From: Roseovarius sp.
GTDB lineage: Bacteria > Pseudomonadota > Alphaproteobacteria > Rhodobacterales > Rhodobacteraceae
Direction of reading: 5' to 3'
Assembly: GCA_027493545.1 (NCBI GenBank)
Contig: JAOSKR010000003.1
Span: forward strand, 117,360 to 181,359
DNA: 64,000 nucleotides
Shown here: positions 4,090 through 21,761 of the stretch, piece by piece
Layout: the number at the start of each line of letters is the position of its first letter
Position numbering within the stretch: position 1 is the stretch's first letter
Program-made: the position numbers and the translations under genes
The notes under the pieces: generated by a model
What the model saw: the letters and a program-made list of their open reading frames with translations, nothing else
Database searches by the model: none
Told to the model about the DNA's origin: nothing

Positions 4090-4740
4090 TCAGCCCCGCG
4101 CCACCGCCAGCGCCGCGATCATGTCGGGCTTGGGCACCCCGGGCGCTGGATAGCTGCGGGCGCTATGGCAAAGCCCGAGCGCCAGGAACCCCGCCGCCAG
4201 CCGCACCGAGAGGGCAAGCGGCTCGATCACGGGCAGGCCGGTGGCGTCGCGCAGCGCCTGCGCTTCAGCCTCGTCGAAGGAACCCGCCAGAACCAGTACG
4301 TCGGCGTCAGACAGCTGCCCCGCGGCGTTTGTCAGGTTGCTGGCCTCGGGGGCGAAGGCGACGCCGGCGCATTGCGCGGCAAGCCCGAATTCCTGCACCT
4401 GCCTTTTCATCCGGTGCGTTGCCGCCGGCCGAGCGATCACGCCGAAGCGCGCGCCCAGCGTGAGCGCATAGAGCATCGCCGACCGCCCCGCACCGATCAC
4501 CGGCACGTCCAGCACAGAGCGCAGCGCGTTCGCGCCGAAATCCTCGGCGTCGCCGACGCAGACGGCGTCAAAGCCCTCCGCGTCCTGTCCGGCGGCAAGA
4601 TATGAAAGATCCGCCAGCGGCCAATGCGCCGGGCCGTCGAGGTCGGCGGGCAGCCCCGCGGGCGCGCGTAGCACGATCTCGGCCTCGGGATCGGCGGGCG
4701 CGGCGTGGTGCGTGTTGGAAATCACCAGAATGCGGGTCAT
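4090..4740 (-). CDS. Asp/Glu/hydantoin racemase family protein
   Basis: 216-aa ORF MTRILVISNTHH...GFDAVCVGDAEDFGANALRSVLDVPVIGAGRSAMLYA... Last gene of the long minus-strand operon. Confidence 0.7.
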   Translation of the reverse strand: MTRILVISNTHHAAPADPEAEIVLRAPAGLPADLDGPAHWPLADLSYLAAGQDAEGFDAVCVGDAEDFGANALRSVLDVPVIGAGRSAMLYALTLGARFGVIARPAATHRMKRQVQEFGLAAQCAGVAFAPEASNLTNAAGQLSDADVLVLAGSFDEAEAQALRDATGLPVIEPLALSVRLAAGFLALGLCHSARSYPAPGVPKPDMIAALAVARG

Positions 4741-4743
4741 GGC

Positions 4744-5520
4744 TCAGCCTCGTTCGGTCAGGACGGCACCGGCCTCGGCCAGGGCGCGCAAGCGGGCGGT
4801 CTCGGACGTTGCGGCGGCGGGGTAGGCGCGGCGGCTGTGACGATGGCCCAGCCCCAGCGCCGCGATCGCCATCCGGTAGGTCAGCGGCCCGGGATTGATC
4901 ACCGGCACCGGCAAGCGTTCGGCAAGATAGCCATGGGCTTCGTGCATGGTGGTCGAGCCCAGAACGATCACGTCGGCGCCGTCCTCCTCGACGCATTGCA
5001 GCGCGGCGCGGTGGAGGGCGGGAAATGTCTCGTCCTCCTTGCCGCCGAGCAGGCTCTGGTTGTCGGGGCGCAGCCCGGCCGCGCGCACCGAAGCGCATTT
5101 GTCGCCCAACCCCAGATCGGCCAGTGTCTTGGCATAAAGGTGCCGCCACTTGTCCCACATCGCGAGGATCGAGAAACGCTCGCCCAGCATCAGCGCCGAC
5201 AGCATGGCATGGCGTCCGGGGCCGATCACGGGAATGTCGAGCGCGGCGCGCAGCGGTGTCATGCCGGAATCGCTCATGGTGTCGATGCAAACCGCGTCGA
5301 AGCCCTCGGCCTGGGCATTCACCCCGGCCGCGAGGATGCCGAGATCGGCGAGCACCGAATCGTGCTGGCTGACATAGCCCGAGGGCGCGAAGGCGACCGG
5401 ACGGAACTCGAACGAAACCCCCTCGACAAGCCGGACGGCCCGCAACTGGGCGCGCCGCTTTTCGAGGTTTTCGGCACTCATCGGAAAGGGCACGATTACC
5501 AGAACTCTGTGCATGGTCAT
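4744..5520 (-). CDS. Asp/Glu/hydantoin racemase family protein (second paralogue)
   Basis: 258-aa ORF ...GFDAVCIDTMSDSGMTPLRAALDIPVIGPGRHAMLSA...DVIVLGSTTMHEA... It shares the family blocks of the downstream paralogue. Confidence 0.75.
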   Translation of the reverse strand: MTMHRVLVIVPFPMSAENLEKRRAQLRAVRLVEGVSFEFRPVAFAPSGYVSQHDSVLADLGILAAGVNAQAEGFDAVCIDTMSDSGMTPLRAALDIPVIGPGRHAMLSALMLGERFSILAMWDKWRHLYAKTLADLGLGDKCASVRAAGLRPDNQSLLGGKEDETFPALHRAALQCVEEDGADVIVLGSTTMHEAHGYLAERLPVPVINPGPLTYRMAIAALGLGHRHSRRAYPAAATSETARLRALAEAGAVLTERG

Positions 5521-5521
5521 C

Positions 5522-6912
5522 TCACTTCCTTGGTGGTTCGGCCAGCGCCCGGCGCAGCGTGGTCAGGCTGGCGGCATCGTCCAGCGCAGCGACCGCCGCC
5601 TCGACGGCCGAGGCATGGGCGCCGCCCCAGACCGGCGCGGCCAGTTCGTGGAACTTGGCGCGGATCTCGTCGGGCCTGTAGGGGTCGGCGGCGTCGCCGC
5701 GATTGGTCAGGGTCTCGCCTTCCAGTACCCGGCCATCGGCAAGCGTCATGCGCACCCGCGCCGGGAGCTGCGCGGGCAGCCGGGCGGTCATGTCGGGATC
5801 TTCGGCCACGCTCACGCGCGCGGCCAGCGCCAGCACGGTTTCGTCGGTCAGCGCCGGGGGCGGAAGGCGGACACGCTGGCGGCGCCGTGGACCAGCATCG
5901 TCGCCACCGCGAAAGGCACCGAGAACTTGGCGGCCAGCATCGTCGGCGGCGCCGGGGCGTCGAGCTGTGCCGCCATGGCGTAGCTCTCGACCTCGATGCG
6001 CGCGACGGCGTCGGGGTCGAACGGACCGTGCCGCGCAATCAGCTCGGCCAGCACGTCGAGCGCGCCGTGGGTAAAGCGGCAGGCGGCGTGGCGCTTGAAA
6101 TAGTTGCGCCTGATTTCCCAGCGCGTGCCCAGTTCCCCGGTCATCGTCGCTGCGTCGAAAGCCTCGGCCAGCACGCCTGAATAGACGCTGCGCAGGGCGT
6201 CGGTCTCGCCGGTAAAGCCGCTGGCAACGAGGTCCCAGGCATAAAGCCCGTTGCGCGCCGCAACCCCGGCATAGGCGTTGCGCACCGTCACGCCCTCGAG
6301 CATGGCACGCAGGCTGCTGCCCGGGCCCAGCGCGGCCGAGACGTTCATCGTCCGCACGATGTCGCGGCCGCCGGCACCCTCGGCGGCGGCGGCGGCCACC
6401 GCTGCACCGATCACGCCCCAGGTGCCGTGGGGATGGATGGCGGGCCTGAGCCGCGTCGCCGTGCCCACCCGTGCGCCGGCCTCGTAGCCCAGCACGAAGG
6501 CGCGCAAGAAACCGATCCCGTCCAGCCCCGCACCGCCGATCCCCGACAGCAGCGCCGGCAGGACGTGAATGCCGGGATGGCCACGGGCAAAGCTGTTGCC
6601 CTCGTCGAGTTCCAGCATGGTTCCCGCGACGCCGTTCAGAAAAGCCGCGTCACCCCCGTGCAGGCGCAGCCCCGCCCCCACCGCGATGCCGTCGCCGGGG
6701 GTGCGCGCCAGCCGCGCGGCCAGCGCGCGGGCCTCGGGCTCCTGCATCCCGGCGGCGATGGCGCCGATACAGTCGAGCAGCACCAGACGAGCCCGGGCAA
6801 TCAGCGCCGGTTCGGCGCGGCGCAGGTCGAAATCGCCGGCGAAATCGCTCCACGTCCGGGCCCGGGCCGGCGCGGGCTCGGCCAGCATGACCGAGGCTGG
6901 GGTGAGACCCAT
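5522..6912 (-). pseudogene. MmgE/PrpD-family protein (2-methylcitrate-dehydratase-like), one frameshift
   Basis: ATG at 6912 is preceded by GGGAGGA. The body lies in ORF 5848..7362 (…LLDCIGAIAAGMQ…GHPGIHVLPALL…HPHGTWGV…FKRHAACRFTHGA…). The C-terminus lies in ORF 5522..5836. The junction is at the G5 run 5856-5860 (a C6 on the coding strand would restore ...AFRPPALTDETVLALAARV...). Confidence 0.8.
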
Positions 6913-6937
6913 GACGCATCCTCCCTTCATGTTGCGG

Positions 6938-7641
<704 letters not shown>

Positions 7642-7658
<17 letters not shown>

Positions 7659-8391
7659 CCCCCGCTTTCATCCGCTTGGCCGCACCGTGCCCGAGATAGG
7701 CCTCGATCACGCCCGCGTCGCTGCTGACCTCGGCCGGGGTGCCGTGCGCGATCATCCTGCCCTGCGCCAGCACGTAGACCTCTTCGCAGAGGTTCATCAC
7801 TGCCTGCATGACGTGCTCGATCATCAGGATGGTCACGCCGTCGTCGCGGATCGCTCGGATCACCGGGACGATGTCGCGCACCTCAGACGGGTTGAGCCCG
7901 GCGAGAACCTCGTCGAGCAGCAGGAGCCGCGGCTCGGTGGCCAGCGCGCGCGCCAGTTCCAGCCGCTTGCGTCCGGCTACGGTCAGCTCGGAGGCCTGCA
8001 TGTCGAGCACCGGTGTCAGGCCGACGCGTTCGGCCACCTCCTCGGCGCGGGCATGGGCCTCGATGGTGCGGCGGTGGCGCAGATAGGCGCCCACCGCGAT
8101 ATTCTCGCGCACGTCGAGACCGGCAAAGGGCTGCACGATCTGGAAGGTCCGCGCGATCCCGCGCCGGGCGCGCTGATGCGCCTTGAGGCGGGTGATGTCC
8201 TCGCCGTCGAAGATCACGCGCCCCTCGGTCGGGGCCTGGAACCCGGCGATCATGGTGAAAAGCGTCGTCTTGCCGGCGCCGTTGGGGCCGATCAGTCCCA
8301 CGATCTGGCCACTCCCGACGCTGAGCGACGCGCCATCGACGGCAACGAGGCCGCTGAACCGCTTGGTGACGTTGTCGACCTCCAGCATCAT
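7642..8391 (-). CDS. livG: branched-chain amino-acid-type ABC transporter ATP-binding protein LivG
   Basis: MMLEVDNVTKRFSGLVAVDGASLSVGSGQIVGLIGPNGAGKTTLF... is the C-terminal 250 aa of ORF 7642..9237. The ATG at 8391 overlaps the livM stop. Confidence 0.85.
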
Positions 8392-9364
8392 GCGCCTCCA
8401 CGGTTGCCGACGCGCCGGGCGAGGCGGCTCAGTTTCTGCATCAGTCCGAGGATGCCGCCGGGCGCGAACGCCACGACCAGGATCAGGACCATGCCGTAGA
8501 TCGCCGGGTCGATCCCCGGCGCCCGTCCGGCGAGTTCCTTGGTCACCTCGCCCAGCCCGTGCAGGGTGAACGCTCCGACCAGGGCGCCCAGCACCATGCC
8601 CTTGCCGCCGACCATCGCCGCCAGCAGCGCCTCGACCGAAATCCACACACCATAGCCGATATTGGCGTCGATATAGAGAAAGTATTGCAGGTACAGGCAT
8701 CCGGCGGCGGCAGTGAAGGCCCCCGAGACGGTAATCGCCCGCAGCTTGACGCCCAGCACATCGACCCCCAGCGCCATTGCCGCGTCCTCGTTCTCGCGCA
8801 CCGCCGCGAGGTGGGCGCCGAACCTCGAATTGGCGATCCACTGGGTGACGATCAGCGCCACGCCAAGCACTGCGGTCGCCAGCCAGACAAAGGCGGCGCG
8901 GCTGGAGAACTGCAGGTTGGCGGCGCGCACGTCGAGTTCCAGCAACAGACCCGCGGCGCCGCCTGTCAGGCCCCATGAATTGGCGACGATCCGCATGACC
9001 TCGGCAAAGGCCAGCGTGACCAGCGCGAAATAGGATCCCCGGAGCCCGGCGCGGAATGACAGAAAGCCGATGATCCAGCCCACCGCCCCGCCTGCCGCCA
9101 CCGCCAGCGCGCTGGCCGTCCAGGATTGAGCCCGGCATGTATCTGCAAGATCGCCGAGACATAGGCGCCGGTGCCGAAAAACGCCGCATGGCCGAAGGAA
9201 AGCTGCCCGCCCATGCCGCCGAGCAGGTTCCAGCCATGCGCCGTCAGCGCGATGATCAGCGCGAATACGATGAAGTTCAGCGCTTCGTTCGAGGCGATGA
9301 CGACCGGCAGCAGCGCCAGTCCCGCCAGTACCAGCGCGACCGGCAGATAGCCCCGCATGCTCAT
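8388..9364 (-). pseudogene. livM: branched-chain amino-acid-type ABC permease LivM, one frameshift
   Basis: The N-terminus MSMRGYLPVALVLAGLALLP...GGQLSFGHAAFFGTGAYV is in ORF 8966..9589. The C-terminal two thirds are in ORF 8388..9605 (...WIIGFLSFRAGLRGSYFALVTLAFAE...). The junction is near 9120. Confidence 0.8.
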
Positions 9365-10234
9365 GCCCGCGCTCCGAACAGGCCGGTGGGCCGGAAGAGC
9401 AGCACCAGGATGAAGATGAGGAAGATGCCGATCTGACCCAGGCTCTCGCCGAGATAGAGCCCCGAAAGGCTCTCGACCACGCCGACGATGAGCCCGCCCA
9501 TGAGCGCCCCGGGGATCGAGCCCATGCCCCCAGCACGACGATGGTGAAGGCCACCAGCACGAAGGCGCCGCCGACACGCGGGTTGACATAGAAGGACGGC
9601 ATCAAAAAGGCAGGCGGCCACCGCCAGCGTCGCCGTCCCCAGCCCGAAGGTGATGGCGAAGATGTGCTTGACGTCGATGCCCACCAGGCTCGCGCCGAGC
9701 TTTTCCCTGGCCACCGCCCGGATCGCCTTGCCGGTGTCTGAATGCGCCAGCAGCGCCCACAAGAGCACGGTCACCACCACCGCCCCGACAAAGCCGTAAA
9801 GCCGCGCCTTGGACAACAGCAGCGGACCCAGTTCAACCACCTGAAACGAGATGTCGGTCGGGATCGAGCGGGTGTCCGACTGAAAGCCCGCCAGCAGCAG
9901 GTTCTCGATGACGATCGAGATGCCCAGCGTCACCAGCAGGATGTTGCCGTCGTCGCCGTGGCTGGCCGGCCCGATCACCGGGGCGCTGCACGGCATAGCC
10001 CAGAACGAAGAACACCGCCGATAGCGGCAGGATCATCAGATAGGGGTTCATCCCCAGCACCGTGTAGCCCAGCCAGACGGCGAACATGGCCACGGTCAGA
10101 AAGGCGCCGTGGGCGAAGTTGATGATGTGCAGCACGCCGTAGACGAGCGTCAGGCCCAGCGCCACGAGCGCATAGACTGCCCCCGTCAGCAGCCCGTTCA
10201 GCATCGCTTCGGCGACGATGGATATGGGATACAT
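9361..10234 (-). pseudogene. livH: branched-chain amino-acid-type ABC permease LivH, about three frameshifts
   Basis: MYPISIVAEAMLNGLLTGAVYALVALGLTLVYG (ORF 9833..10273) is followed by ORF 9361..9996. A short stretch then lies in the frame of ORF 8388..9605 (MMPSFYVNPRVGGAFVLVAFTIVVLG) before the sequence returns to GGMGSIPGALMGGLIVG. Junctions are near 9990, 9600 and 9535. Confidence 0.75.
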
Positions 10235-10297: not shown

Positions 10298-11520
10298 TCA
10301 CGAGTTGGCCGGGAAACGCGCCTCTGCGTTGGCGAATTCCTCGGGTCGCACGACCTTGATCTCGCCTTCCTGCACCTGCGTGCCGACCGGCGAGGCGCCC
10401 TGGTTCTGGCCGTTCTCGAACCGGGTCGGCCCGTAGGGCATCAGGTGGCCGTCGAACGTCGAGGCGGCGATCGCCTCGATCAGCGCCGCCCGCTCGGCGG
10501 TGCCCGCGCGCTCGAGCGCATCGGCGACCAGCAGGACGTTGGAGTAGTTCAGCGGCGTGTTGTAGGCCCAGGTCGCGCCCTGTTCGTGAACCCGCGCGAT
10601 CAGTTCGTCATTCCGGGGTTGCGCGGATCCTGCCAGTGGTTGACGTCCATGATGCCCTCGGCCGCGTCCGGAAACTCGGAGACGAAGCGCGGGTTCGAGG
10701 CGGCACCGTTCAGCACCGAATAGACCGCCATCGGCCGCACGCGCTGCTGCTGCATGGTCCGTGCCAGCAGCACCGTTTCGCCGTAGTAGGTGCTGGGGAT
10801 CACCAGGTCGGGATTGAGCGAGCGCAGGCGCAGCGCCACGTTCGACAGATCGCGCGCGGGCGTCGGGATCGCGATCCGCTCGACGATCTCGAAACCGTGC
10901 TGCGGCAGCTCCTTTTCCATCAGGTCCGACAGGCCGGTGCCGAACAGCCCGTCCTCGTGAACCAGCGCGATGGTCTTTGCGGGCTTGCCCGTGGCCTCGT
11001 TGAGCGCGACCAAGGTTGCCGATGGCGAACTTGGTGCAGATCGCGAAGCCCGGCGCGAAGCGGAAGGTGTTGGTCAGGCCGCGCGAGGTGATCTTGTCGG
11101 AGACGCCCACATCGACCATGTAGGCCAGATCGTAGCGCGAGGCGGCCCGGCTGGCGGCCAGGCAGATCGGGCTGGCAAAGCCGCCGACGATGGCCGCGAC
11201 GCCCACCGACTGCATCCGCTCGACCTCCTGCACCCCGGCCTCGGGGTTCGAGCGCGCGTCGCCGAACACCATTTCGAGTTTGGCGCCGCCCAGCGCCTTG
11301 ATGCCGCCCGCGGCGTTGATGTCCGCGATCGCCATCTCGGCGCCGCGGCGCCCCAGTTCACCGTCCTGGGCCAGTGCGCCGGTTACCGGCTGCAGGATGC
11401 CCAGCTTGACGGGGTCGGGCTCGGCCCCCAGAGGATCGAGGGGGTGGCCAGCGCGGTGGCGGCGGCGGTGGCGGCGCCTCCGCGCAGCAGCTGACGGCGG
11501 TTCGGTCTGAATGTGGTCAT
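10298..11520 (-). pseudogene. ABC transporter periplasmic substrate-binding protein (LivK/amide-urea type, Tat signal), about three frameshifts
   Basis: The ATG at 11520 follows AAGGGAGA. MTTFRPNRRQLLRGGAATAAATALA is a twin-arginine signal. The body is spread over ORFs 10298..11335 and 10600..11013 (…DINAAGGIKALGGAKLEMVFGD…IALVHEDGLFGTG…). Junctions are near 11430, 11015 and 10605. Confidence 0.75.
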
Positions 11521-11569
11521 TTGTCTTCTCCCTTTGATGCTTGGTTCGTCCATTCTGCGGACCCGGACG

Positions 11570-13015: not shown

Positions 13016-13018
13016 GCC

Positions 13019-13879
13019 TCAGCCCTCCTCATAGGCGCGGCCCTCGGCCAGCAGCGTCTCGGTGCCGATCACCCCGTTGAGGCCCGAGAAATCGAACATC
13101 CGGTCGGCGAAGGGCCGGTTGGTGCCGTGGGCATGAAGGCTGGCGTAATAGTCCTGCGCCGTGCGCGCCAGCGCGCGCACGATGCCGCCCGGGAAGATCA
13201 CGATGGAAAAGCCCGCCGCCTCGAGATCGGCGGCCGAGCGGATCGGCGTGGCGCCGCCCTCGACCATGTTGGCCAGAAGCGGGATGCGCCCGCCGAAACG
13301 GTCGGTGATGCCGGCCAGTTCCCGCGCCGAGCGCGGCGCCTCGATGAAGAGCACGTCGGCACCGGCCTCGATATAGCGTTCGGCGCGGGCGCAGGCGTCG
13401 TCAAATCCCTCGACGGCGATGGCGTCGGTGCGGGCAATGATCAGCGTCTCGCGGCTGGCGCGGGCATCGGCCATGGCAGCGATCTTGCCGGCCATCTCGG
13501 CGGCCGGGATCAGCGACTTGTCCGACAGGTGCCCGCAGCGCTTGGGAAAGGTCTGGTCCTCGATCTGCAGCGCGCTGGCGCCGGCGCGCTCGTAGACGCG
13601 CATGGTGCGCGCGGCATTCAATGCATTGCCAAAGCCGGTATCGGCGTCGATGATCACCGGCAGATCGACCCGGTCGCGGATCAGCGCCATGGTGTCGGCC
13701 ATCTCGGACATGGTCGAGAGCCCGATATCGGGCCGGCCCAGCCGGGTATAGGCCACCGCCGCCCCCGAGAGATAGAGCAGCTCGAATCCCGCCTCGGCCG
13801 CCATTGCCGCGGTCAGTCCGTCATAGACCCCCGGCGCGATCGCGATCCGGTCCGAGGCGAGGCGGGCGCGCAGGCTCAT
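13019..13879 (-). CDS. isocitrate lyase / PEP mutase superfamily enzyme (methylisocitrate-lyase / carboxyvinyl-carboxyphosphonate phosphorylmutase-like)
   Basis: MSLRARLASDRIAIAPGVYDGLTAAMAAEAGFELLYLSGAAVA...IIDADTGFGNA...ALQIEDQTFPKRCGHL... are hallmark blocks. The ATG at 13879 overlaps the upstream stop (ATGA). Confidence 0.8.
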   Translation of the reverse strand: MSLRARLASDRIAIAPGVYDGLTAAMAAEAGFELLYLSGAAVAYTRLGRPDIGLSTMSEMADTMALIRDRVDLPVIIDADTGFGNALNAARTMRVYERAGASALQIEDQTFPKRCGHLSDKSLIPAAEMAGKIAAMADARASRETLIIARTDAIAVEGFDDACARAERYIEAGADVLFIEAPRSARELAGITDRFGGRIPLLANMVEGGATPIRSAADLEAAGFSIVIFPGGIVRALARTAQDYYASLHAHGTNRPFADRMFDFSGLNGVIGTETLLAEGRAYEEG

Positions 13880-14490
13880 GACCCATCCCCGATCATCGCG
13901 GCCGCCTCGGCGCAGGTCATCACGCGGGTGACCGAGCCCAGCGAGATCAACGTCGCCTCGTGCACCTCGTCGCTGAAGGCGGCGCAGCCATCCGACAGCA
14001 GGATCGTCCCGATGCCGCGCAGATGCGCGTCGCGCACGGTGCTGGCGACGCCGCCATTGGTGACGATGCCGCCGATGATCAGCGTATCGACCCCGATCGC
14101 GCCCAGAACCCATTCCAGCCGGGTCTGGTAGAAGGCGGAATAGTTGATCTTCTCGACAGTGAAATCGGCCGGTTTCAGCGCATCGACAAGGTCGTGACCG
14201 AAGGCGCCCGGCTCGAAATCGCCGCGCGTCAGGAACGGCCGCAGCGCCTTGAGGTGCGGCGCGATCAGCGGCTCCCCCCGGGGGCGCGGGACCAGCGTGA
14301 ACTGGGCCGAGACATAGTGCCCGCCGTGCCCGCGCAGCGCCGCGATCACCGGCGCGATGCGGCCGGGCAGGGGCGCGATCGCGGGCGAGGACTGGCCGGC
14401 CCGGCCGTAGGCGCCCTGCGGGTGAAGGAAATCGTTCTGCAGGTCAATCGTCAGCACCGCGCTGCGGCCGGGATCGAAGGTGTCGCTCAT
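13876..14490 (-). CDS. isochorismatase-family cysteine hydrolase (amidase-like)
   Basis: MSDTFDPGRSAVLTIDLQNDFLHPQGAY...TLIIGGIVTNGGVASTVRDA... (D-K-C type family blocks). ATGA overlaps on both sides. Confidence 0.8.
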   Translation of the reverse strand: MSDTFDPGRSAVLTIDLQNDFLHPQGAYGRAGQSSPAIAPLPGRIAPVIAALRGHGGHYVSAQFTLVPRPRGEPLIAPHLKALRPFLTRGDFEPGAFGHDLVDALKPADFTVEKINYSAFYQTRLEWVLGAIGVDTLIIGGIVTNGGVASTVRDAHLRGIGTILLSDGCAAFSDEVHEATLISLGSVTRVMTCAEAAAMIGDGS

Positions 14491-16547
14491 GTCCTGGCCT
14501 CGATGATGACGTTGCCAAAGGCGTCGACGGTGCCCTTCAGCTCGGGTTCGATGAGAATGGTCGTGTCGGGCTGCTCGAGGATTGCCGGCCCGTCGATCAC
14601 CGCACCAACCGGCAGGTCGAGCCGGGCATAGATGGCGGTGTCGTGCCACTGTCCGTCGAAATAGACCTGTCGGGTCGCCTGGCGCGCATCCTCGGCGCTG
14701 CCGGCAGTGGCGGGGGCGAGGCTCTTGAGGTCGAACTTGGGCCGCTCGCCGATCACCGCGCTGCGCAGGTTCATCACCCGGCGCACGCCCTTGTCGAGGA
14801 GCCGGCCATAGGTGCCCCGGTAGGCGGCGTCGAACGCTTCGGCGATCCCGGCGCGGGTGGGCGGCGTGACGATGCCGTCCTCGACGGTGACCGGCAGCGG
14901 CACCGCAACGGTGTGGGTCTGGCCGATATAGGCCATGTCCAGCTCGAAGCGCGCGACGCGGCGGTCGAACCGGGTGCCGGAGGCGTCGAGCACCGCCATG
15001 CCGTCGTCGTGGTGGCGCTGCATCAGCGCGCCGAGCGCCGCCTCGTCCACCGCATCGACCAGTGCGTTGACGGTCTGCACGAAATCCTGCCGCATGTCGG
15101 CGATGACGCAGCCCATGGCGCTGGTGACGCCGGGATAGCGCGGCACCAGTGCACGGCCGAGGCCGACATCGGCGAGCATCGCCCCGGCATGGAGCGCGCC
15201 GCCGCCGCCGAAGGGCATGAAGGTAAAGCGCCGCGGATTGAAGCCGCGCTCGATGCTGACCAGGCGGATGGCGCCGGCCATCCGGGCATTGGCGACGCGC
15301 AGAATGGCCTCGGCCGCCTCCAGCATGCCAAGTCCCAGCGGCGTGCCGACATGGGCCTCGATGGCGCGCGCGGCGGCATCCACATCCAGCCGCTCGAGCG
15401 CGCCGATGGGGCTCCGGGCGTCGATGCGGCCCAGCACCACGTTGGCGTCCGTCACCGTGGGCCGGTCGTTGCCGCGCCCGTAGGCCACCGGGCCGGGATT
15501 GCTGCCCGCGCTTTCGGGGCCGATGTTGAGCAGCCCGCCCTTGTCCACCCACGCGATCGAGCCGCCGCCGGCCCCGATGGTCGCGATCTCGATCATCGGC
15601 GAGCGCACCACCATGCCGAAATCGAGCGAGGTCTGCGCCGCCAGCATCGACTGCCCGCCCGAAATCAGCGCCACGTCGAAGCTGGTGCCGCCGACATCGC
15701 CGGTGATGACATCGTCAAAGCCCGCGCTTTGGGCGATGTAGCCGGCCGCGATCACGCCCGCCGCCGGTCCCGACAGTGTGGTTCGGATCGGCAGGCGGCT
15801 GGCCATGTCAACGTCCATCACCCCGCCATTCGACTGCACGATCATGAATTCGCCGCCAAAGCCGTCGCGGGTCAGCCCATCCTCGAGCCGCTGGATATAA
15901 CCCGACACCTCGGGTTGCAGGTAGGCGTTGAGCGTGGTGGTCGAAAACCGTTCGAACTCGCGGATCTCGGGCAGGATCTCGGAGGAGGCCGAGACGTGCG
16001 GGTTGGGCCAGATCGCGCGCAACACCTCGACCGCGCGGGTCTCGTTTTCGGGGTTGGCATAGGCATTGGCGAAAAGCACCGCCACCGCGGCGCAGCCCGC
16101 GTCGAGCAGCTCCCGCCCGGCGGCGCGCACCGCGGCGAGGTCGACCGCCTGACGCACGGTGCCGTCGGCCAGGGTGCGCTCGGGCACCTCGAGCCGCAGT
16201 TCACGCGGGACTACCGGCACGAAATCGCCGCGCAGCCCCCAGGTGCGCGGCCGGTCGCGGCGGCGCATCTCGAGCACGTCGCGCAGACCTTGCGTGGTGA
16301 TGACGCCGATACGCGCACCCTTGCGTTCGAGCAGGGCGTTGGTACCGGTGGTGGTCCCGTGGACGACCACCGACAGGTCGGCGGCGTCCCCGGCCAGTTC
16401 GTCGATGCCGGCAAGAAAGCCGCCGGACTGGTCCGGGCGGGTGGTGGCCACCTTGGTCACGCGCGCGTCGCCGGTCGCCTCGTCGAGCATGAAGACATCC
16501 GTGAAGGTGCCGCCGACGTCGACGCCGATCATCCTGCTGCCGCTCAT
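14487..16547 (-). CDS. hyuA: hydantoinase A / oxoprolinase-family ATP-dependent amidohydrolase, A subunit
   Basis: MSGSRMIGVDVGGTFTDVFMLDE...VVHGTTTGTNALLERKGA...GDVGGTSFDVALI... 687 aa within ORF 14487..16949. The ATG at 16547 overlaps the hyuB stop. Confidence 0.85.
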   Translation of the reverse strand: MSGSRMIGVDVGGTFTDVFMLDEATGDARVTKVATTRPDQSGGFLAGIDELAGDAADLSVVVHGTTTGTNALLERKGARIGVITTQGLRDVLEMRRRDRPRTWGLRGDFVPVVPRELRLEVPERTLADGTVRQAVDLAAVRAAGRELLDAGCAAVAVLFANAYANPENETRAVEVLRAIWPNPHVSASSEILPEIREFERFSTTTLNAYLQPEVSGYIQRLEDGLTRDGFGGEFMIVQSNGGVMDVDMASRLPIRTTLSGPAAGVIAAGYIAQSAGFDDVITGDVGGTSFDVALISGGQSMLAAQTSLDFGMVVRSPMIEIATIGAGGGSIAWVDKGGLLNIGPESAGSNPGPVAYGRGNDRPTVTDANVVLGRIDARSPIGALERLDVDAAARAIEAHVGTPLGLGMLEAAEAILRVANARMAGAIRLVSIERGFNPRRFTFMPFGGGGALHAGAMLADVGLGRALVPRYPGVTSAMGCVIADMRQDFVQTVNALVDAVDEAALGALMQRHHDDGMAVLDASGTRFDRRVARFELDMAYIGQTHTVAVPLPVTVEDGIVTPPTRAGIAEAFDAAYRGTYGRLLDKGVRRVMNLRSAVIGERPKFDLKSLAPATAGSAEDARQATRQVYFDGQWHDTAIYARLDLPVGAVIDGPAILEQPDTTILIEPELKGTVDAFGNVIIEART

Positions 16548-18238
16548 CGGGCCACCTCTTTCCATCCGGCACCATAGCTGGCGGTTGCGGCCTCGGCGCT
16601 GAGATAGCCGGCGGCGACATCGCGGGCCACGGCCTCGGGCGGGCGTTCGCTGGCCGGGCCGTAGCCGCCTCCGCCCGGGGTCTCCAGCCGCACCGAGTGG
16701 CCACCATCGAGCCGGATGCCGCGCATCTTCGATGCCAGCGGCGGATGGTGCCAGCCATCGGCCTGCTCGAAGGAAAAGACGTTGAGCGCCGCGTCGCCGC
16801 CGCCCGCCACCCCCTTGGGGGCAAAGCGGCCGCGCTCGCCGAAGAGAAACGCCTCGGCGCCGTTCTCTTCCAGCACCTCGATCTCGTAGATCGCGCCGAG
16901 ACCGCCACGGTGCCGGCCGGCGCCGGCGCTGTCGGGGCGCAGCGCCCATTGCCGGAACATCACCGGATAGGCCGCCTCGAGGATTTCCAGCGGCGGGATG
17001 GTGGCGGTCGAGATCGGGGCGTTGCCGTGGTTGAGCCCGTCCGAATCGGACGAACCGCCATGCCCGCCGCCGTAGAAGCTGAACATCACCCAGGGGCTGC
17101 CGTCCGAGCGCCGCCCGGCGATCGAAAGCGCGTTGATGGTACCATAGGCGTTGGCGACCACGCGCTCGGGCGCGGCCTGAGCGGCTGCGGCAAAGATCAC
17201 GTCGATCATGCGCAGGATGGTCTCGGTATAGCCGCCGGTGGGCTTTGGAAACTCGGCCGCGAGCAGCGATCCCTCGGGGATCCGTACCTCGATCGGGCGC
17301 ATCACCCCGGCATTGGCAGGCAGCGACGGGAAGATGTGCTTGATCGCCACATAGGCGGTCGCCACCGCCGTCGGCAGCGCGATATTGACCGGGCCCTGCG
17401 TCACCGGCGCGGTGCCCTCGAAATCGAGCACCATGCGGTCCCCCTTGATCTCCAGCGCCACGCGGATCGGCAGCGGCGTGTCGGTGATGCCGTCATTGTC
17501 GAGGAAATCCCCGGCTTCCCAGCGGCCGTCAGGCAGCGCCGACAGCTCGGCCCGCATCAGCGTCTCGGCCCGCCGGCCCATCGCGTCGAGCGCGGCCGCG
17601 ACGGTTTCGGCGCCGTATTCGTCGAGTACCGAGTCGAGACGGCGCACGCCGAGATCGAGCGCGTTCATCTGCCCGTTCAGGTCACCCGTCGCCGACTGCG
17701 GCAGGCGGGTGTTGCGCATGATGATGTCGATGATGTCGGGCTGCACCTCGCCGGCCCGAACCAGCCGCACCGGCGGCAGCACGAACGCCTCCTGGAACGC
17801 CTCGGTCGCCGCCGGATTGTAGTTGCCCGGAACGTTGCCGCCGACATCGTGCCAGTGCCCGACGCTGGCGAGGTAGCAAAAGAGCTTGCCGTCGCGGAAA
17901 TAGGGCCGCACCAGGCGCATGTCCGACAGGTGGGTGCCGCCGATATGGGCATCGTTGAAGATCCACACGTCGCCGTCGTTCAGCTCGCCGCGCTCGGCGG
18001 CCTTCTCGATCACCGCCTTGACCGCAAAGGCCATGACGCCGACAAAAATCGGCAGCCCGGACTTGCCCTGCACCAGCGTATCGCCGGTCTCGGCGTGATA
18101 AAGCCCGTGGCTGGCGTCATGCGCCTCGGCGATGATCGGGTTGAAGGCCGAGCGGAACAGCGTCGCGTCCATCTCGTCGGCGATCTGCTCCATCCGGCCG
18201 GTCAGCACGGCCAGGGTGATCGGGTCGATCTCAGTCAC
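16544..18238 (-). CDS. hyuB: hydantoinase B / oxoprolinase-family subunit
   Basis: GTG start at 18238 (GTGA overlap with the upstream stop). VTEIDPITLAVLTGRMEQIADEMDATLFRSAFNPIIAEAHDAS...GGHGGSSDSDG...GGGGYGP... is typical HyuB. Confidence 0.85.
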   Translation of the reverse strand: MTEIDPITLAVLTGRMEQIADEMDATLFRSAFNPIIAEAHDASHGLYHAETGDTLVQGKSGLPIFVGVMAFAVKAVIEKAAERGELNDGDVWIFNDAHIGGTHLSDMRLVRPYFRDGKLFCYLASVGHWHDVGGNVPGNYNPAATEAFQEAFVLPPVRLVRAGEVQPDIIDIIMRNTRLPQSATGDLNGQMNALDLGVRRLDSVLDEYGAETVAAALDAMGRRAETLMRAELSALPDGRWEAGDFLDNDGITDTPLPIRVALEIKGDRMVLDFEGTAPVTQGPVNIALPTAVATAYVAIKHIFPSLPANAGVMRPIEVRIPEGSLLAAEFPKPTGGYTETILRMIDVIFAAAAQAAPERVVANAYGTINALSIAGRRSDGSPWVMFSFYGGGHGGSSDSDGLNHGNAPISTATIPPLEILEAAYPVMFRQWALRPDSAGAGRHRGGLGAIYEIEVLEENGAEAFLFGERGRFAPKGVAGGGDAALNVFSFEQADGWHHPPLASKMRGIRLDGGHSVRLETPGGGGYGPASERPPEAVARDVAAGYLSAEAATASYGAGWKEVAR

Positions 18239-18798
18239 AAGGCACCTTTCGTTTCGGCGAGGTCGTTCCAGACGTCCTGTCTGACGATCAGCCCGCCGGT
18301 CAGCTCGAATCGGTCGACAAACCGGATGCCGGCGAAGGGTGTGCCGTCGGGCCAGTGGCCCGAGAGCGTGCCCCGGCAATAGACAACCGTGGCATCGCCA
18401 TCCTGGCAGGCGTCGAACCCGGCATAGACCTTGGCGATGTCGCGGTAGCGGGTGCGCGCCTGGTCGACGAGGTCCGACAGGCGCGTCATCGGCGCGGCGC
18501 CGGGGAAATGCATGGTGAAACCCTCGCCCAGGAACGCGCCCGCAGCGTCGAGGTCGCGGGCGGCCATGGCGTCGAGAAAGGCGCGCACGGTGTCGACCGG
18601 GTCCGGCAGGACGGGGGCGGGGCTGCGGGCGATGCCGCCGCGGATGTAATTGCCCGGTGCGGCCTCGCGGGTGATGACGGTCACCAGATCGGCCGGTGCC
18701 GGCACGACCATGCGCACCGCATCGGTTACGGCCCGCGCGAGACGTGTCCGCACGTCTGTGTCGTAGCCCTCTATCAAAGTGATCTCGACGACCGGCAT
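18235..18798 (-). CDS. fusion protein: 4-oxalocrotonate-tautomerase-like domain + SnoaL/NTF2-like domain; first gene of the operon
   Basis: ATG at 18798 is preceded by GGAGGGGA. MPVVEITLIEGYDTDVRTRLARAVTDAV is the Pro-1 tautomerase motif. It is followed by VDTVRAFLDAMAARDLDAAGAFLGEGF...FVDRFELTGGLIVRQDVWND, which is NTF2-like. Confidence 0.7.
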   Translation of the reverse strand: MPVVEITLIEGYDTDVRTRLARAVTDAVRMVVPAPADLVTVITREAAPGNYIRGGIARSPAPVLPDPVDTVRAFLDAMAARDLDAAGAFLGEGFTMHFPGAAPMTRLSDLVDQARTRYRDIAKVYAGFDACQDGDATVVYCRGTLSGHWPDGTPFAGIRFVDRFELTGGLIVRQDVWNDLAETKGAL

Positions 18799-18840
18799 GA
18801 AATCCCCTCCAAAACCTGTCATACGAAAGATACCGAAATC

Positions 18841-18871
18841 GGGCAATATAAATTTGCATTTCATGATTGCC
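18841..18871. promoter_or_regulatory. candidate GntR/HutC operator in the divergent promoter region
   Basis: Perfect 7-bp inverted repeat GGGCAAT (18841-18847) / ATTGCCC (18865-18871) around an AT-rich spacer. It lies between the divergent starts at 18798 (-) and 18938 (+). Confidence 0.35.
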
Positions 18872-18937
18872 CAAGTAACAATCCCACTCAACGCCAGCCT
18901 GGCGCTGGTTTCCAGAGGAACACCAACCGGGATCGCC

Positions 18938-19759
18938 ATGGACAAGAACGGCCCTCATTCATCGCCCGGCGGCGGCAAGTTCACCCTGCCCGAGGGTGGG
19001 AAATCGCGCCGGGTTTTCCTGTTGCTGCGCGACGCCATCGCCGGCGGCCAGTACCCCGCCGACAGCCTTCTGCCCAGCGAACAGCGGCTGGCGGCAATGC
19101 ACGACGTCTCGCGCGTGACCGTCCGCCGCGCGCTCGATGCGCTGGCCGCCGACGGGCTGATCGAGAAGCGGGCCGGCGCGGGCTCGGCGGTGCGTGCGGC
19201 GGTGCCGGCCATGGCCGCAGACATGACGACCTTCATCCCGCAGATCGTGGCGATGGGCCGGCAGACCGAGGTCCGGCTGCTGTCGTTTTCCTATGACGAG
19301 GCACCGCCGCAGGTGGCCGCGGCGCTGAAGCTGGCCAGGGGCGCGCTGGTGCAGCGGGCAGTGCGCATCCGTCTGGTGCGCGGGCGGCCCTTTTCGCACC
19401 TGACCACCTTCGTTCCCGAGGCGATCGCGAGCAACTTCTCCGAGGCCGATCTGGCCAACACGCCGCTCTTCGAGTTGCTCGAGCGTGGCGGCGCGCGTAT
19501 CGAATCGGCACGGCAATCCGTGACCGCGGCACTGGCCACGCCCGAGGTGGCGCCGGCGCTCGGGGTCTCGGTGGGCTCGGCGCTGCTGGCGCTGACACGG
19601 ACGGTCTACGACGATGCCGGGCGCGGGATCGAGTATCTGTCGGCGCTCTATCGCCCCGACCTCTTCCGGCTCGACATGGCCATGGCTCGCGTCGGCACCG
19701 GCGGCGGCCGCCAGTGGCAGCCCGTCATCGGCGGGGCAAGCGAGGAGACACCGTCATGA
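18938..19759 (+). CDS. GntR-family (HutC/UTRA subfamily) transcriptional regulator
   Basis: MDKNGPH...LLPSEQRLAAMHDVSRVTVRRALDALAADGLIEKRAGAGSAV (winged HTH) followed by a UTRA-like C-terminal domain. Its stop overlaps the leuC-like start (ATGA). Confidence 0.8.
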   Translation: MDKNGPHSSPGGGKFTLPEGGKSRRVFLLLRDAIAGGQYPADSLLPSEQRLAAMHDVSRVTVRRALDALAADGLIEKRAGAGSAVRAAVPAMAADMTTFIPQIVAMGRQTEVRLLSFSYDEAPPQVAAALKLARGALVQRAVRIRLVRGRPFSHLTTFVPEAIASNFSEADLANTPLFELLERGGARIESARQSVTAALATPEVAPALGVSVGSALLALTRTVYDDAGRGIEYLSALYRPDLFRLDMAMARVGTGGGRQWQPVIGGASEETPS

Positions 19760-21162
19760 ACGCACCACGGACCCTGCTGGACAAGCTCTGGAACCGGCAC
19801 GAGATCGTGCGCGGCGACGAGGGCACCTCGCTGCTCTGGGTCGACCGGCATCTGGTGCACGAGGGATCGCACCACGCCTTTCGCAAGCTTTCCGAACGCA
19901 ACCTGCCGGTGGCGCATCCCGAACTGACCGTGGCGGTGGTCGACCACTACGCGCCCACCCGCCACCGCGACCGTATCACCGACCCGGCACAAAAACGCAT
20001 GATCGACACCCTTGAAGAAAACGCGCGCCGGCATGGCCTGACCTGTTTCGGTCTCGACGATCCGCGGCAGGGGATCGTGCATGTGATCGGGCCGGAACAG
20101 GGGCTGACCCTGCCGGGACTGCTGATCAATTGCGGCGACAGCCACACCTCGACCCACGGCGCATTTGGCGCGCTGGCCTTCGGGATCGGCGCAACCGAGG
20201 TCGCCCACGTACTGGCCACCCAGACGATCTGGCAAAGCCGGCCCAAGGCGATGCGCATCCGCATCGAGGGCACCGCCGGACCCGGCGTCGGGGCCAAGGA
20301 TTTCGCGCTGGGCTGGATCGCCCGGCTGGGGGCCGACGGCGCGCACGGCCACGCCATCGAATACGCGGGCTCGGCGGTGCGGGCGCTGTCGATGGAGGGG
20401 CGCATGACGCTCTGCAACCTCTCGATCGAAGGCGGCGGCCGGCTCGGCATGATCGCGCCGGACGAGACCACGCTGGCCTATCTGGAAGGCCGGCCGCGGG
20501 CACCGGCGGGCGACGAGTGGCAGCGCGCCTGCGCCGAGTGGCTGGCGCTGACAAGCGACGATGGCGCCGCTTTCGACCGCGAGGTGACGATCGACGCGGC
20601 CGAGATCGCCCCCATCGTCACCTGGGGCACCAGCCCCGAGGACGCGCTGCCCATCGACGGCCATGTTCCCGATCCCGCGAAGCTGGCGCCGCGCGAGGCC
20701 GATAACGTCCGCGACGCGCTGGATTACATGGGGCTCACCGCGGGGCAGAAGCTGGCGGGCACACCGGTCGATCAGGTCTTCATCGGCTCATGCACCAACG
20801 CCCGCATCGAGGATCTGCGCGCCGCCGCCGCCGTCCTGGCGGGCCGGCGGTCGCGGGTGCCGGGCATGGTCTCGCCTGGCTCCACCGCCGTCAAGGCCCG
20901 GGCCGAGGCCGAGGGGCTGGACCGGATATTCATCGAGGCCGGGCTCGACTGGGTGGGTTCGGGCTGTTCGATGTGCGTGGCGATGAACGGCGATATCGCG
21001 GCCCCGGGCAGCCGCGTCGCCTCGACCACCAACCGGAACTTCAAGGGCCGGCAGGGGCGCGGCGCGCGCACCCATCTGATGTCGCCGGTCATGGTCGCCG
21101 CGGCGGCCGTCACCGGCGCGCTGACCGATGTGCGCCCGCTGCTCAAAGGACGCAAGCCATGA
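19756..21162 (+). CDS. leuC: aconitase-family dehydratase large subunit (3-isopropylmalate dehydratase LeuC-like)
   Basis: MNAPRTLLDKLWNRHEI...VDRHLVHEGSHHAF...INCGDSHTSTHGAFGALAFGIG...FIGSCTNARIEDL...GCSMCVAMNGD... are Fe-S ligand Cys blocks. From its context this may be a catabolic paralogue rather than the leucine-pathway enzyme. Confidence 0.8.
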   Translation: MNAPRTLLDKLWNRHEIVRGDEGTSLLWVDRHLVHEGSHHAFRKLSERNLPVAHPELTVAVVDHYAPTRHRDRITDPAQKRMIDTLEENARRHGLTCFGLDDPRQGIVHVIGPEQGLTLPGLLINCGDSHTSTHGAFGALAFGIGATEVAHVLATQTIWQSRPKAMRIRIEGTAGPGVGAKDFALGWIARLGADGAHGHAIEYAGSAVRALSMEGRMTLCNLSIEGGGRLGMIAPDETTLAYLEGRPRAPAGDEWQRACAEWLALTSDDGAAFDREVTIDAAEIAPIVTWGTSPEDALPIDGHVPDPAKLAPREADNVRDALDYMGLTAGQKLAGTPVDQVFIGSCTNARIEDLRAAAAVLAGRRSRVPGMVSPGSTAVKARAEAEGLDRIFIEAGLDWVGSGCSMCVAMNGDIAAPGSRVASTTNRNFKGRQGRGARTHLMSPVMVAAAAVTGALTDVRPLLKGRKP

Positions 21163-21761
21163 AGGGCTGGACACGGCACGAGGGCATGGCCGCCGGCCTG
21201 CCGCAGGAAAACATCGACACCGACCAGCTGATTCCGGCGCGCTTCATGTCGGCGCCCCGCAGCGAGGGCTATGGCAAGTTCCTGCTCCACGACCTGCGCT
21301 TTGACGCCGACGGCACGCCGCGCGACTTCCCGCTCGGGCCCGGGACCAGCGTTGTCGTCACGAGGCGCAATTTCGGCAGCGGCTCATCGCGCGAGGCGGC
21401 GGTCTATGCGCTGGTGGATTTCGGCATCAGGGTGGTGGTCGCCCCCAGCTTCGGCGATATCTTCGCCTCGAACGCGGTCAACAACGGGCTGCTGCCCGCG
21501 CGCGTGACACCCGAGATGGCCGAGCAGCTGCTGGGCCAGCTCGCGGCCGGGCCCGTGCGCGTGGTGGCCGATCTGGAAACGGGCCGTATCCGTATCGGGG
21601 ACGAAAGCGTGCCCTTCGACCTGGTGCGCAGCTGGCGCGACAAGCTGATCAACGGCTGGGACGATATCGACCTGACGCTGCGGCACCGGGCCGAGATCGC
21701 CACCTTTGCCGAACGCTATCGTCGCGCCAGCCCCTGGACCTGGCCGCGGGGCACGGGCTGA
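21159..21761 (+). CDS. leuD: aconitase-family dehydratase small subunit (LeuD-like)
   Basis: MKGWTRHEGMAAGLPQENIDTDQLIPARFM...VVTRRNFGSGSSREAAVYALVDFGIRVVVAPSFGDIF... ATGA overlap with the large subunit. Confidence 0.8.
   Translation: MKGWTRHEGMAAGLPQENIDTDQLIPARFMSAPRSEGYGKFLLHDLRFDADGTPRDFPLGPGTSVVVTRRNFGSGSSREAAVYALVDFGIRVVVAPSFGDIFASNAVNNGLLPARVTPEMAEQLLGQLAAGPVRVVADLETGRIRIGDESVPFDLVRSWRDKLINGWDDIDLTLRHRAEIATFAERYRRASPWTWPRGTG

Follow-up and report, generated by a model that had tools for sequence, protein, structure and literature searches.

Which compound would a bacterium degrade with an operon that combines a hydantoinase/oxoprolinase-type enzyme, an isochorismatase-fold protein, a PrpB-like lyase and a LeuCD-type hydratase? 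This question is raised by a stretch of 64,000 nucleotides from Roseovarius sp. (GenBank assembly GCA_027493545.1, contig JAOSKR010000003.1, positions 117,360 to 181,359 of the forward strand; hereafter the window), in which fourteen minus-strand genes run from position 18798 to 4090, opposite a plus-strand unit for a GntR-type regulator and the two subunits of the hydratase. An earlier note, made from the sequence of the window, had taken these genes for an undescribed route from a cyclic amide or hydantoin to a branched dicarboxylate. The recurrence of the same families, in other orders, in distant bacteria is strong evidence that the whole block and the GntR-LeuCD genes constitute one functional unit. 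Judging from gene families and active-site residues, we give about an even chance to the reading that this unit serves the substrate-inducible catabolism of a carboxylate-bearing cyclic amide, of the lactam or cyclic-imide type, to central metabolites without coenzyme A (CoA) esters.

Organization of the cluster

Because the G+C content of the region is ~70%, real genes were separated from spurious open reading frames (ORFs) by a third-position G+C frame plot. The genes, with their Pfam families, lengths in amino acids (aa) and the short names used below, are the following.

18235-18798, minus: fusion of 4-oxalocrotonate tautomerase (4OT) and SnoaL (NTF2-like), Taut, 187 aa, operon gene 1 (Tautomerase and SnoaL_2)
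16544-18238, minus: HyuB, hydantoinase B/oxoprolinase family, 564 aa, GTG start (Hydantoinase_B, 555 bits)
14487-16547, minus: HyuA, hydantoinase A/oxoprolinase family, 686 aa (Hydant_A_N, Hydantoinase_A, Hydant_A_C)
13876-14490, minus: isochorismatase-fold protein without the nucleophilic Cys, Isoch, 204 aa (Isochorismatase)
13019-13879, minus: lyase of the isocitrate lyase/phosphoenolpyruvate mutase (ICL/PEPM) superfamily, PrpB-like, ICL, 286 aa (PEP_mutase)
11570-13015, minus: FAD_binding_2 flavoprotein, fumarate-reductase/TcuA-like, FAD-A, 481 aa (by Pfam)
10298-11520, minus: Liv-type Peripla_BP_6 substrate-binding protein with a twin-arginine translocation (TAT) signal; three indels in the window, at ~11424, 11012 and 10614 (Pfam matches on fragments)
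9361-10234, minus: ATP-binding cassette (ABC) permease 1, BPD_transp_2; three indels in the window (by Pfam)
8388-9364, minus: ABC permease 2, BPD_transp_2; one indel in the window (by Pfam)
7642-8388, minus: ABC ATPase 1, LivG-like, intact (ABC_tran and BCA_ABC_TP_C)
6938-7649, minus: ABC ATPase 2, LivF-like; two indels in the window (by Pfam)
5522-6912, minus: MmgE/PrpD-family protein, PrpD, 463 aa if intact; one indel at ~5855 (MmgE_PrpD_N/C over two frames)
4744-5520, minus: Asp/Glu/hydantoin-racemase-fold protein, Rac1, 258 aa (Asp_Glu_race)
4090-4740, minus: Asp/Glu/hydantoin-racemase-fold protein, Rac2, 216 aa, last operon gene (Asp_Glu_race)
18799-18937, no strand: divergent control region between operon and GntR, with a weak -35/-10 match and a degenerate inverted repeat
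18938-19759, plus: GntR/HutC-type regulator, GntR, 273 aa (GntR helix-turn-helix and UTRA, by Pfam)
19756-21162, plus: LeuC-type large subunit of the aconitase family, LeuC, 468 aa (Aconitase)
21159-21761, plus: LeuD-type small subunit, LeuD, 200 aa (Aconitase_C)

The fourteen genes are real and form a tightly packed operon, accompanied by a divergent regulator/hydratase unit; all those listed in the earlier note are present, and their families agree with Pfam. The chaining that it had described for the first six genes can be read from the junctions: a GTGA overlap joins the tautomerase gene to HyuB, ATGA overlaps join HyuB to HyuA, HyuA to Isoch and Isoch to ICL, and three nucleotides separate ICL from FAD-A. 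Beyond FAD-A, neighbouring genes overlap or lie 1-3 nt apart, except at three gaps of 49, 64 and 25 nt. The coupling of the regulator to the aconitase-type heterodimer likewise holds, with ATGA overlaps at both GntR/LeuC and LeuC/LeuD. Since genes convergent to Rac2 come next, as seen in the downstream context of a closely related contig (L009, see below), the operon ends at 4090.

Conservation and gene-order variants

Alignment of the tautomerase fusion led to at least 588 genome loci, of which the best 80 were kept and the 17 window proteins mapped onto them. These 80 loci come mostly from Rhodobacterales (Sulfitobacter, Ruegeria, Roseobacter, Marivita, Aestuariivita), with some from Roseibium, Hoeflea and Zhengella. 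The arrangement LeuD-LeuC-GntR facing Taut-HyuB-HyuA-Isoch-ICL-FAD is found in 65-76 of them, the regulator gene in 71 and a linked LeuC gene in 73. In 64 of the 65 loci that have all six head genes, these are colinear with gaps of less than 200 nt, so that the arrangement is beyond chance. Identity to the window proteins in the marine relatives is ~82% for HyuB and ~75% for both HyuA and ICL. The Liv-type ABC transporter, PrpD and the Rac pair are absent from ~70 marine relatives among the best 80 loci, and genes for a tripartite ATP-independent periplasmic (TRAP) transporter, DctP-DctQ-DctM, follow LeuD in 56-61 of 74 marine loci.

Taken by themselves, the 80 marine loci had suggested that only the head module is conserved and that the tail is unrelated to it. 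This view was overturned by neighbourhoods seeded with PrpD, which hold the full set in a different arrangement; in the gene strings below, Liv5 stands for the five-component Liv-type ABC importer. Chelatococcus and Rhizobium mayense have FAD-A divergent from LeuC-LeuD-OYE-GntR-Liv5-PrpD-ICL-HyuB-HyuA-Isoch-Taut-FAD-B-Rac-Rac, where OYE is the gene for an ene-reductase of the old yellow enzyme family (Oxidored_FMN) between LeuD and GntR (L099 3394-4365; L104 3487-4458) and FAD-B is a paralogue of FAD-A (~44% identical) that in these clusters is always found with the Rac pair and a tautomerase of 163 aa. In Azospirillum brasilense and Methylobacterium sp. 4-46, the order is GntR-Liv5-PrpD-ICL-HyuB-HyuA-Isoch-FAD-LeuC-LeuD. 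The set is split in Tistrella mobilis, with GntR-Liv5-PrpD-ICL-Taut-FAD-B-Rac-Rac-PrpD2 on one replicon and GntR-HyuB-HyuA-Isoch-acyl-CoA dehydrogenase-CoA-transferase-LeuC-LeuD on plasmid pTM2. The shortest form is that of Paraburkholderia, with GntR-Liv5, a divergent aconitase-type pair and HyuB-HyuA-Isoch-ICL, followed by insertion sequence (IS) genes. The window's own order is kept in a metagenome contig whose PrpD is 83% identical. Across these clusters, the window proteins are 50-83% identical to their counterparts, and one PrpD homologue (P0152) was called as a fusion with an ICL domain.

All variants share a core that consists of a regulator, a transporter (TRAP or Liv-type ABC), the HyuB-HyuA-Isoch triplet, an aconitase-type hydratase and an ICL/PrpB-like lyase. 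FAD-A is present in almost every variant; accessory members are PrpD, the tautomerase, FAD-B, the Rac pair and OYE. The transporter may be of the TRAP or the ABC type, with the same enzymes retained. HyuB, HyuA and Isoch are contiguous in every variant and are missing together from the PrpD locus of Tistrella. By gene content and order, the window cluster is a hybrid of a marine-type head and a soil-type tail. Several loci (e.g. L022, L048, L059) have replication genes of the repA/parB type beside the cluster or are on plasmid-labelled records, and 44 records of plasmids or chromids carry HyuB homologues (Sulfitobacter, Azospirillum, Tistrella, Paraburkholderia, Variovorax).

The same families are thus found together in six or more arrangements, in Rhodobacterales, Rhizobiales, Azospirillum, Tistrella and Paraburkholderia, which argues for functional coupling and bears out the earlier note's treatment of the block as one unit. 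The gene set recurs, with its order shuffled, in hundreds of bacteria from the sea or associated with plants. Only a subset of the fourteen genes is universal, as PrpD, the Rac pair and the Liv-type ABC transporter are lacking in the marine relatives.

HyuAB and its partner proteins

The two-subunit HyuA/HyuB organization and the full-length Pfam matches are shared with caprolactamase CapAB, N-methylhydantoin amidohydrolase and 5-oxoprolinase. The best NCBIfam models are caprolactamase alpha for HyuA (495 bits) and caprolactamase beta for HyuB (299 bits), with acetophenone carboxylase at 295 and 148 bits, respectively. Identity with CapAB was rejected because both subunits miss the equivalog cutoff of 1000 bits. 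Apart from these scores, which amount to one third to half of the cutoffs, the window pair differs from the known enzymes in being always followed by a Cys-less isochorismatase-fold protein and in its hydratase and lyase context, a setting that is not known for those enzymes. Nothing specifically favours a hydantoin, which the earlier note had named beside a cyclic amide.

In an alignment with RutB, 3KL2 and 3HB7, two residues of the catalytic triad, Asp and Lys, are retained in the isochorismatase-fold protein, and Gly stands at the position of the Cys; the segment GIVTNGGVAST, with this Gly, is found in 72 of 74 orthologues. Its nearest characterised relatives, RutB and biuret hydrolase, act on ureido or amide substrates. 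Because the nucleophilic Cys is replaced by Gly, the alignment excludes a thioester-type amidase mechanism of the kind used by N-carbamoylsarcosine amidase and NicF, and the deamidation step that had been modelled on these two enzymes is not supported. To our knowledge, the only well-understood Cys-less members of the fold are the true isochorismatases (EntB/PhzD), which hydrolyse a vinyl ether by carbon protonation and have no nucleophilic Cys. The window protein resembles them in its fold and in the missing Cys but is nearer in sequence to the amidase branch (3KL2, RutB), and no vinyl-ether substrate is evident from its context.

The tautomerase fusion belongs to the 4OT-SnoaL subgroup: it has Tautomerase and SnoaL_2 domains, keeps Pro1 (MP...), as do 85 of 85 relatives, and is 52% identical, with a template modelling (TM) score of 0.93, to PDB entries 9MUA/9MUP, '4OT-SnoaL from P. 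atlanticus', released in April 2025. Compared by structure and entry title, the latter is a full-length homologue in which Pro1 is kept as well; its release shows that one laboratory at least has the first gene under study.

Lyase, hydratase and accessory enzymes

The lyase carries the EDQ metal motif and the catalytic-Cys loop, EDQ..PK(R/K)CGHL, in 75 of 75 orthologues and can be placed among the C-C lyases of the ICL/PEPM superfamily. It misses the equivalog cutoff of PrpB (TIGR02317 prpB, 280.6 bits, cutoff 354.4), and its closest PDB matches are methylisocitrate lyase (183 bits), petal death protein (175) and dimethylmalate lyase (168). LeuC scored 720 bits with NF009116 and 613.5 with TIGR00170 (cutoff 560.25), and LeuD 153.4 bits with TIGR00171 (cutoff 116.25). 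As both exceed the cutoffs of the LeuC/LeuD models, 2-alkylmaleate-type substrates would be expected; the conserved catabolic context argues for a paralogous catabolic role of this LeuCD rather than leucine biosynthesis. The only NCBIfam match of the PrpD-like protein is a weak one to PrpD itself (26 bits, cutoff 950), which does not support PrpD identity, and its closest PDB relatives are iminodisuccinate (IDS) epimerase (88 bits) and then IRG1/cis-aconitate decarboxylase.

The flavoprotein is similar to TcuA and to the soluble fumarate and urocanate reductases, with which it shares the FAD_binding_2 fold and the two His residues that bind the substrate carboxylate. It differs from them in having no TcuB or cytochrome partner and in missing the cutoffs of the NCBIfam models (flavocytochrome c, 236 bits; TcuA, 186.9 bits, cutoff 369), and Tyr stands at the positions of both Arg402 and Arg545 of Fcc3. 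The Glu378/Arg381 relay is absent, and these features are conserved in 73 orthologues. Because Tyr replaces both Arg residues and the relay is absent, the sequence indicates that this is not a canonical fumarate reductase. One substitution, Q394R, is specific to the window: CGG at 11834-11836 encodes Arg in the motif FHTQGG, where 73 of 73 orthologues and the near-identical contigs have Gln, and Arg394 adjoins the His that corresponds to His504, which binds the substrate in fumarate reductase. The C-terminal tail of the flavoprotein in the window lineage (…AVPCSAPAPDIGSARAPRVVPRARGTGAP; window 11570-11660, L009 3860-3946) is ~26 aa longer than in the 455-462-aa orthologues and may reflect a lineage-specific shift of the stop codon.

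In an alignment that included 3QVJ, the catalytic Cys pair is replaced in Rac1 by Thr and Ser, a pattern conserved in five orthologues; Rac2 has neither catalytic Cys, and both of its positions are variable. The two Cys residues of hydantoin/allantoin racemase and maleate isomerase being missing, these identities were rejected for the pair, and the racemisation or isomerisation step of the earlier note is not supported in the form proposed.

Proposed pathway

From the gene content, linkage and active-site residues described above, we infer the following order of steps, chemistry and substrate class. Upon appearance of the substrate or an intermediate, the GntR/HutC-type repressor would release both divergent units. 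Uptake would be by the Liv-type ABC transporter in the window and by the DctPQM TRAP transporter in most marine relatives. HyuAB would use ATP to open a ring of the lactam or imide type, and its Cys-less isochorismatase-fold partner, together with the Pro1 tautomerase where it is present, would process the ring-opened enamine or enol product and release the nitrogen; the invariance of the HyuB-HyuA-Isoch triplet is the reason for proposing the two activities jointly. Nitrogen release would most plausibly proceed by protonation of the C=C bond and hydrolysis, as isochorismatases do with vinyl ethers, and not through a thioester amidase. The product would be an alkyl- or carboxyalkyl-substituted C4-dicarboxylate of the maleate or succinate type, and the minimal set of Paraburkholderia suggests that it is already a cis-unsaturated dicarboxylate. 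The LeuCD-type hydratase would then add water across the cis double bond, and the PrpB-like lyase would split the 2-hydroxy acid so formed; one product would be a 2-oxo acid, either pyruvate or glyoxylate, the other a (di)carboxylate of shorter chain, perhaps glutarate. Further isomers and congeners may enter through the flavoprotein, which would desaturate saturated analogues, through PrpD, which would dehydrate hydroxy isomers, and through Rac1/Rac2 and, elsewhere, OYE.

The identity of the second lyase product is hinted at by additional cluster genes of two distant lineages. Inside the pTM2 cluster of Tistrella (L105 13464-15954) lie genes for an acyl-CoA dehydrogenase and a family III CoA-transferase, and the same types follow directly after FAD in the Marivita lineage (L052 17163-19537 and six related loci); between the two lineages, the two proteins are 71% and 50% identical. 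The best NCBIfam model for the CoA-transferase is succinate-glutarate CoA-transferase (528-533 bits, next model 295, cutoff 750). Because a succinate-glutarate-type CoA-transferase and an acyl-CoA dehydrogenase have joined the cluster in these two lineages, the sequences hint that the second product is glutarate or a close analogue. Among the marine loci, a glutaryl-CoA-dehydrogenase-type gene after FAD is seen only in one close lineage and in L046, a weak indication alone that gains weight with Tistrella.

With respect to the earlier note, its uptake, HyuAB ring opening, (de)hydration by LeuCD/PrpD and ICL-type C-C cleavage remain plausible by families and by the conserved K(R/K)CGH loop, whereas its order of steps had left out the tautomerase fusion and the flavoprotein. 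Overall, the data support one pathway, undescribed as far as we checked, which would be a cyclic-amide catabolic operon assembled from known superfamilies, with non-canonical active sites in three subfamilies.

A more specific reading, which we regard as a long shot, is a CoA-independent route for carboxylated ring fragments of the maleimide or succinimide type, for which hematinic acid and related maleimides would be the top candidates. Hematinic acid, a maleimide with a carboxyethyl and a methyl substituent, arises from the oxidation of chlorophyll, haem and bilins. HyuAB and the Cys-less partner would open and de-nitrogenate its ring, LeuCD would hydrate 2-methyl-3-(2-carboxyethyl)maleate, and the PrpB-like lyase would yield pyruvate and glutarate; congeners with vinyl, ethyl or ethylidene groups, and saturated ones, would be the task of the flavoproteins, OYE, the tautomerase, PrpD and the Rac pair. 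This candidate would agree with transporters of the carboxylate type, with the CoA-transferase and dehydrogenase genes for glutarate in two lineages and with the restriction to hosts associated with algae and plants.

Several observations weigh against catabolism of a cyclic amide as proposed here. No gene other than LeuC and LeuD reaches an NCBIfam equivalog cutoff, so that assignments are at the superfamily level, and the relatives of HyuAB also include ketone carboxylases. The role of the Cys-less isochorismatase-fold protein is drawn by analogy with EntB/PhzD, and the protein could instead be a non-catalytic subunit. By alignment, the flavoprotein lacks the catalytic Arg of fumarate reductase, which makes the direction and the substrate proposed for it tentative. 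The link to glutarate comes from two lineages only. Finally, five genes are frame-broken in this assembly, and a working pathway in the source strain is not assured.

The head gene is found in at least 588 species-level genomes, many of them of abundant marine bacteria of the Roseobacter group, and plant-associated members of Azospirillum, Rhizobium, Methylobacterium and Paraburkholderia retain the same enzymes. A conserved catabolic system of 10-17 genes with this distribution marks a gap in the knowledge of which dissolved organic nitrogen and carbon compounds these bacteria consume. Textbook catalytic residues are replaced in an isochorismatase fold without Cys, a racemase-fold pair without Cys and a fumarate-reductase fold with Tyr for Arg; the solved pathway would probably show new chemistry in well-known folds.

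Sequence quality

Look-ups by exact protein brought up many metagenome contigs with 99.1-99.8% identity to the window. With L009, a 104-kb contig (99.2% identical) in which all operon genes are intact, as the indel reference, the window has 16 single-base indels and one 15-nt insertion (~1486), all between 1187 and 11424. No indels were found in 11425-15515 by comparison with L009, which ends there, nor onward to 21050 by comparison with L001-L004. Ten of the indels fall inside five genes: three each in the binding protein and permease 1, one in permease 2, two in ATPase 2 and one in PrpD. The intact binding-protein gene encodes 407 aa in L001 and L006-L009, and PrpD is intact in L009-L016. 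The earlier note had rightly seen that the frame of the binding protein is broken but had missed the four other genes. In ATPase 2, one indel removes the stop codon and creates an in-frame ABC/PrpD hybrid ORF (5848-7362, 504 aa), which is also listed in the protein database (P0123).

Alternative explanations

These ten frame-breaking indels over five genes, together with the flavoprotein Arg at a Gln position that is invariant in 73 orthologues, could mean that the operon of the source strain is a decaying pseudogene cluster and not a working pathway. We consider this unlikely. The indels are single-nucleotide changes, mostly in the length of short G, C or T runs; substitution density in the indel-rich stretch is not above that in the clean stretch; the indels run on beyond the operon to position 1187; and a DAO/GCV_T dehydrogenase gene far from it, at ~59.2 kb, is also split over two frames (59007-59903 and 57479-59233), which suggests uneven sequence quality in the source assembly. 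For these reasons the indels are probably sequencing or assembly errors rather than decay, and many independent contigs of ~99% identity have intact genes. Nor is the block likely to be a collection of two or three unrelated modules, such as HyuAB with the lyase, PrpD and the racemases with an ABC transporter of the amino-acid type, and a housekeeping LeuCD. That view has in its favour the ~70 marine relatives with the head and LeuCD but without the Liv-type ABC transporter, PrpD and Rac, the scores of LeuC and LeuD with leucine-biosynthesis NCBIfam models and the gaps of 49, 64 and 25 nt between sub-blocks. We hold it to be quite improbable, given that the full set recurs reordered, with protein identities of 50-80%, in Chelatococcus, Rhizobium, Azospirillum and Methylobacterium, that PrpD homologue P0152 was called fused to an ICL domain, and that LeuCD is ATGA-coupled to the cluster regulator and travels with the cluster in every variant.

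A different chemistry would follow if HyuAB were an ATP-dependent carboxylase of the acetone/acetophenone-carboxylase type, which would turn a ketone or enol into a branched dicarboxylate with no ring opening. Both subunits have secondary NCBIfam matches to acetophenone carboxylase, and the tautomerase could provide the enol; the caprolactamase models, however, score clearly higher (495 against 295 bits and 299 against 148 bits), and none of the cluster variants has a small gamma or epsilon subunit, so that the carboxylase has a very slim chance of being correct. Hardly more probable is a variant of a known route, namely creatinine/N-methylhydantoin degradation, nicotinate degradation (by NicF/NicE or by dimethylmaleate hydratase and dimethylmalate lyase) or the methylcitrate cycle. 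Two or three of the cluster's families occur in each of these, and the nearest characterised relatives of the isochorismatase-like protein (RutB, biuret hydrolase) act on ureido or amide compounds. Yet the Cys of N-carbamoylsarcosine amidase (CSHase), NicF and RutB and the Cys pair of NicE and hydantoin racemase are absent, the PrpB, PrpD, TcuA and caprolactamase equivalog cutoffs are all missed, and neither sarcosine oxidase, Mo-hydroxylase, B12 mutase, enamidase nor methylcitrate synthase was found in the ~90 loci examined; the homarine operon homABCDER is a different gene set as well.

Comparison with known pathways

The earlier note had named the creatinine, nicotinate and tricarballylate systems for comparison; pieces of each are shared, nicotinate in both its aerobic and its anaerobic routes, as are pieces of the methylcitrate cycle and of caprolactam degradation, and in every case a defining feature is missed. 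The N-methylhydantoin/creatinine pathway was rejected on the failed Asp-Lys-Cys amidase pattern (Gly for Cys) and on the lack of linked creatinine and sarcosine genes: neither creatinine deaminase nor sarcosine oxidase/dehydrogenase is linked in any cluster variant examined, and the sole sarcosine-type dehydrogenase in the window lies 36 kb from the operon. The lower methylcitrate cycle has the same three chemistries as the window, with an MmgE/PrpD-type dehydratase, an aconitase-family hydratase and a PrpB-like lyase with K(R/K)CGH, but the window proteins miss the PrpB/PrpD cutoffs, methylcitrate synthase is lacking and PrpD is absent from the marine variant. In nicotinate fermentation by Eubacterium barkeri, dimethylmaleate is converted to dimethylmalate and then to propionate and pyruvate. 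As in the window, a LeuCD-type hydratase precedes an ICL/PEPM-type 2-alkylmalate lyase, and dimethylmalate lyase and petal death protein are close to the window lyase; unlike that pathway, the cluster has no upstream nicotinate enzymes, and its hydratase is of the bacterial LeuCD subfamily (NF009116), not the archaeal-type DmdAB.

Identity with the homarine operon was rejected because the families of homABCDER (SPO3188-3192), which encodes flavin-binding HomA, HomB, peptidase-like HomC and aldehyde-dehydrogenase-like HomD (PMC13236597), differ from those of the cluster. No match to a characterised pathway was thus found, as the earlier note had anticipated, and only LeuCD reach equivalog cutoffs. 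Full-text searching, to which most subscription journals were out of reach, brought up no account of either the cluster or PDB 9MUA.

Control region and transport

The divergent control region of the window has one weak -35/-10 match, at 18873-18845, and a promoter and terminator scan gave counts at background level. In many marine relatives (L017-L096), a conserved AT-rich inverted repeat lies just 5' of the ribosome-binding site of the tautomerase gene, for example ATCTGTATTAC-N-TACAGAT or GTATTACAGATAATAC; the window has only a degenerate form of it in 18799-18937 (GGTATCTTTCGTATGACAGG). The repeat is likely to be a GntR/HutC operator. Scores of the regulator itself are below cutoff for HutC, PhnF and the other NCBIfam models. 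No Rfam family, tRNAs and riboswitches included, reached gathering score anywhere in the 64-kb window.

TRAP systems of the DctP type typically take carboxylate substrates. Transfer of a ligand to the TRAP binding protein from its best PDB relative, 4MNC/4MNI (169 bits), was rejected because the similarity is too low, and the solved relatives of the Liv-type binding protein are LivJ-like only and therefore uninformative.

Neighbouring genes

Convergent to LeuD is a gene for a 5-aminolevulinate-synthase-like protein (22330-23775, minus), which is unlinked to the cluster in all relatives; this lack of linkage led us to reject the 'aminotransferase' beside LeuD as a pathway member. Farther along, genes for a CcmF/NrfE-type haem lyase (25575-27716, minus) and a multi-haem cytochrome (PF13447; 30275-31855, minus) lie close together and may constitute a dedicated maturation system for a multihaem reductase. 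The best named relative of the haem lyase is from Roseovarius spongiae (82%), which makes a host of the Roseobacter group probable, and the plasmid-borne CycK of Ruegeria pomeroyi DSS-3 is 66% identical.

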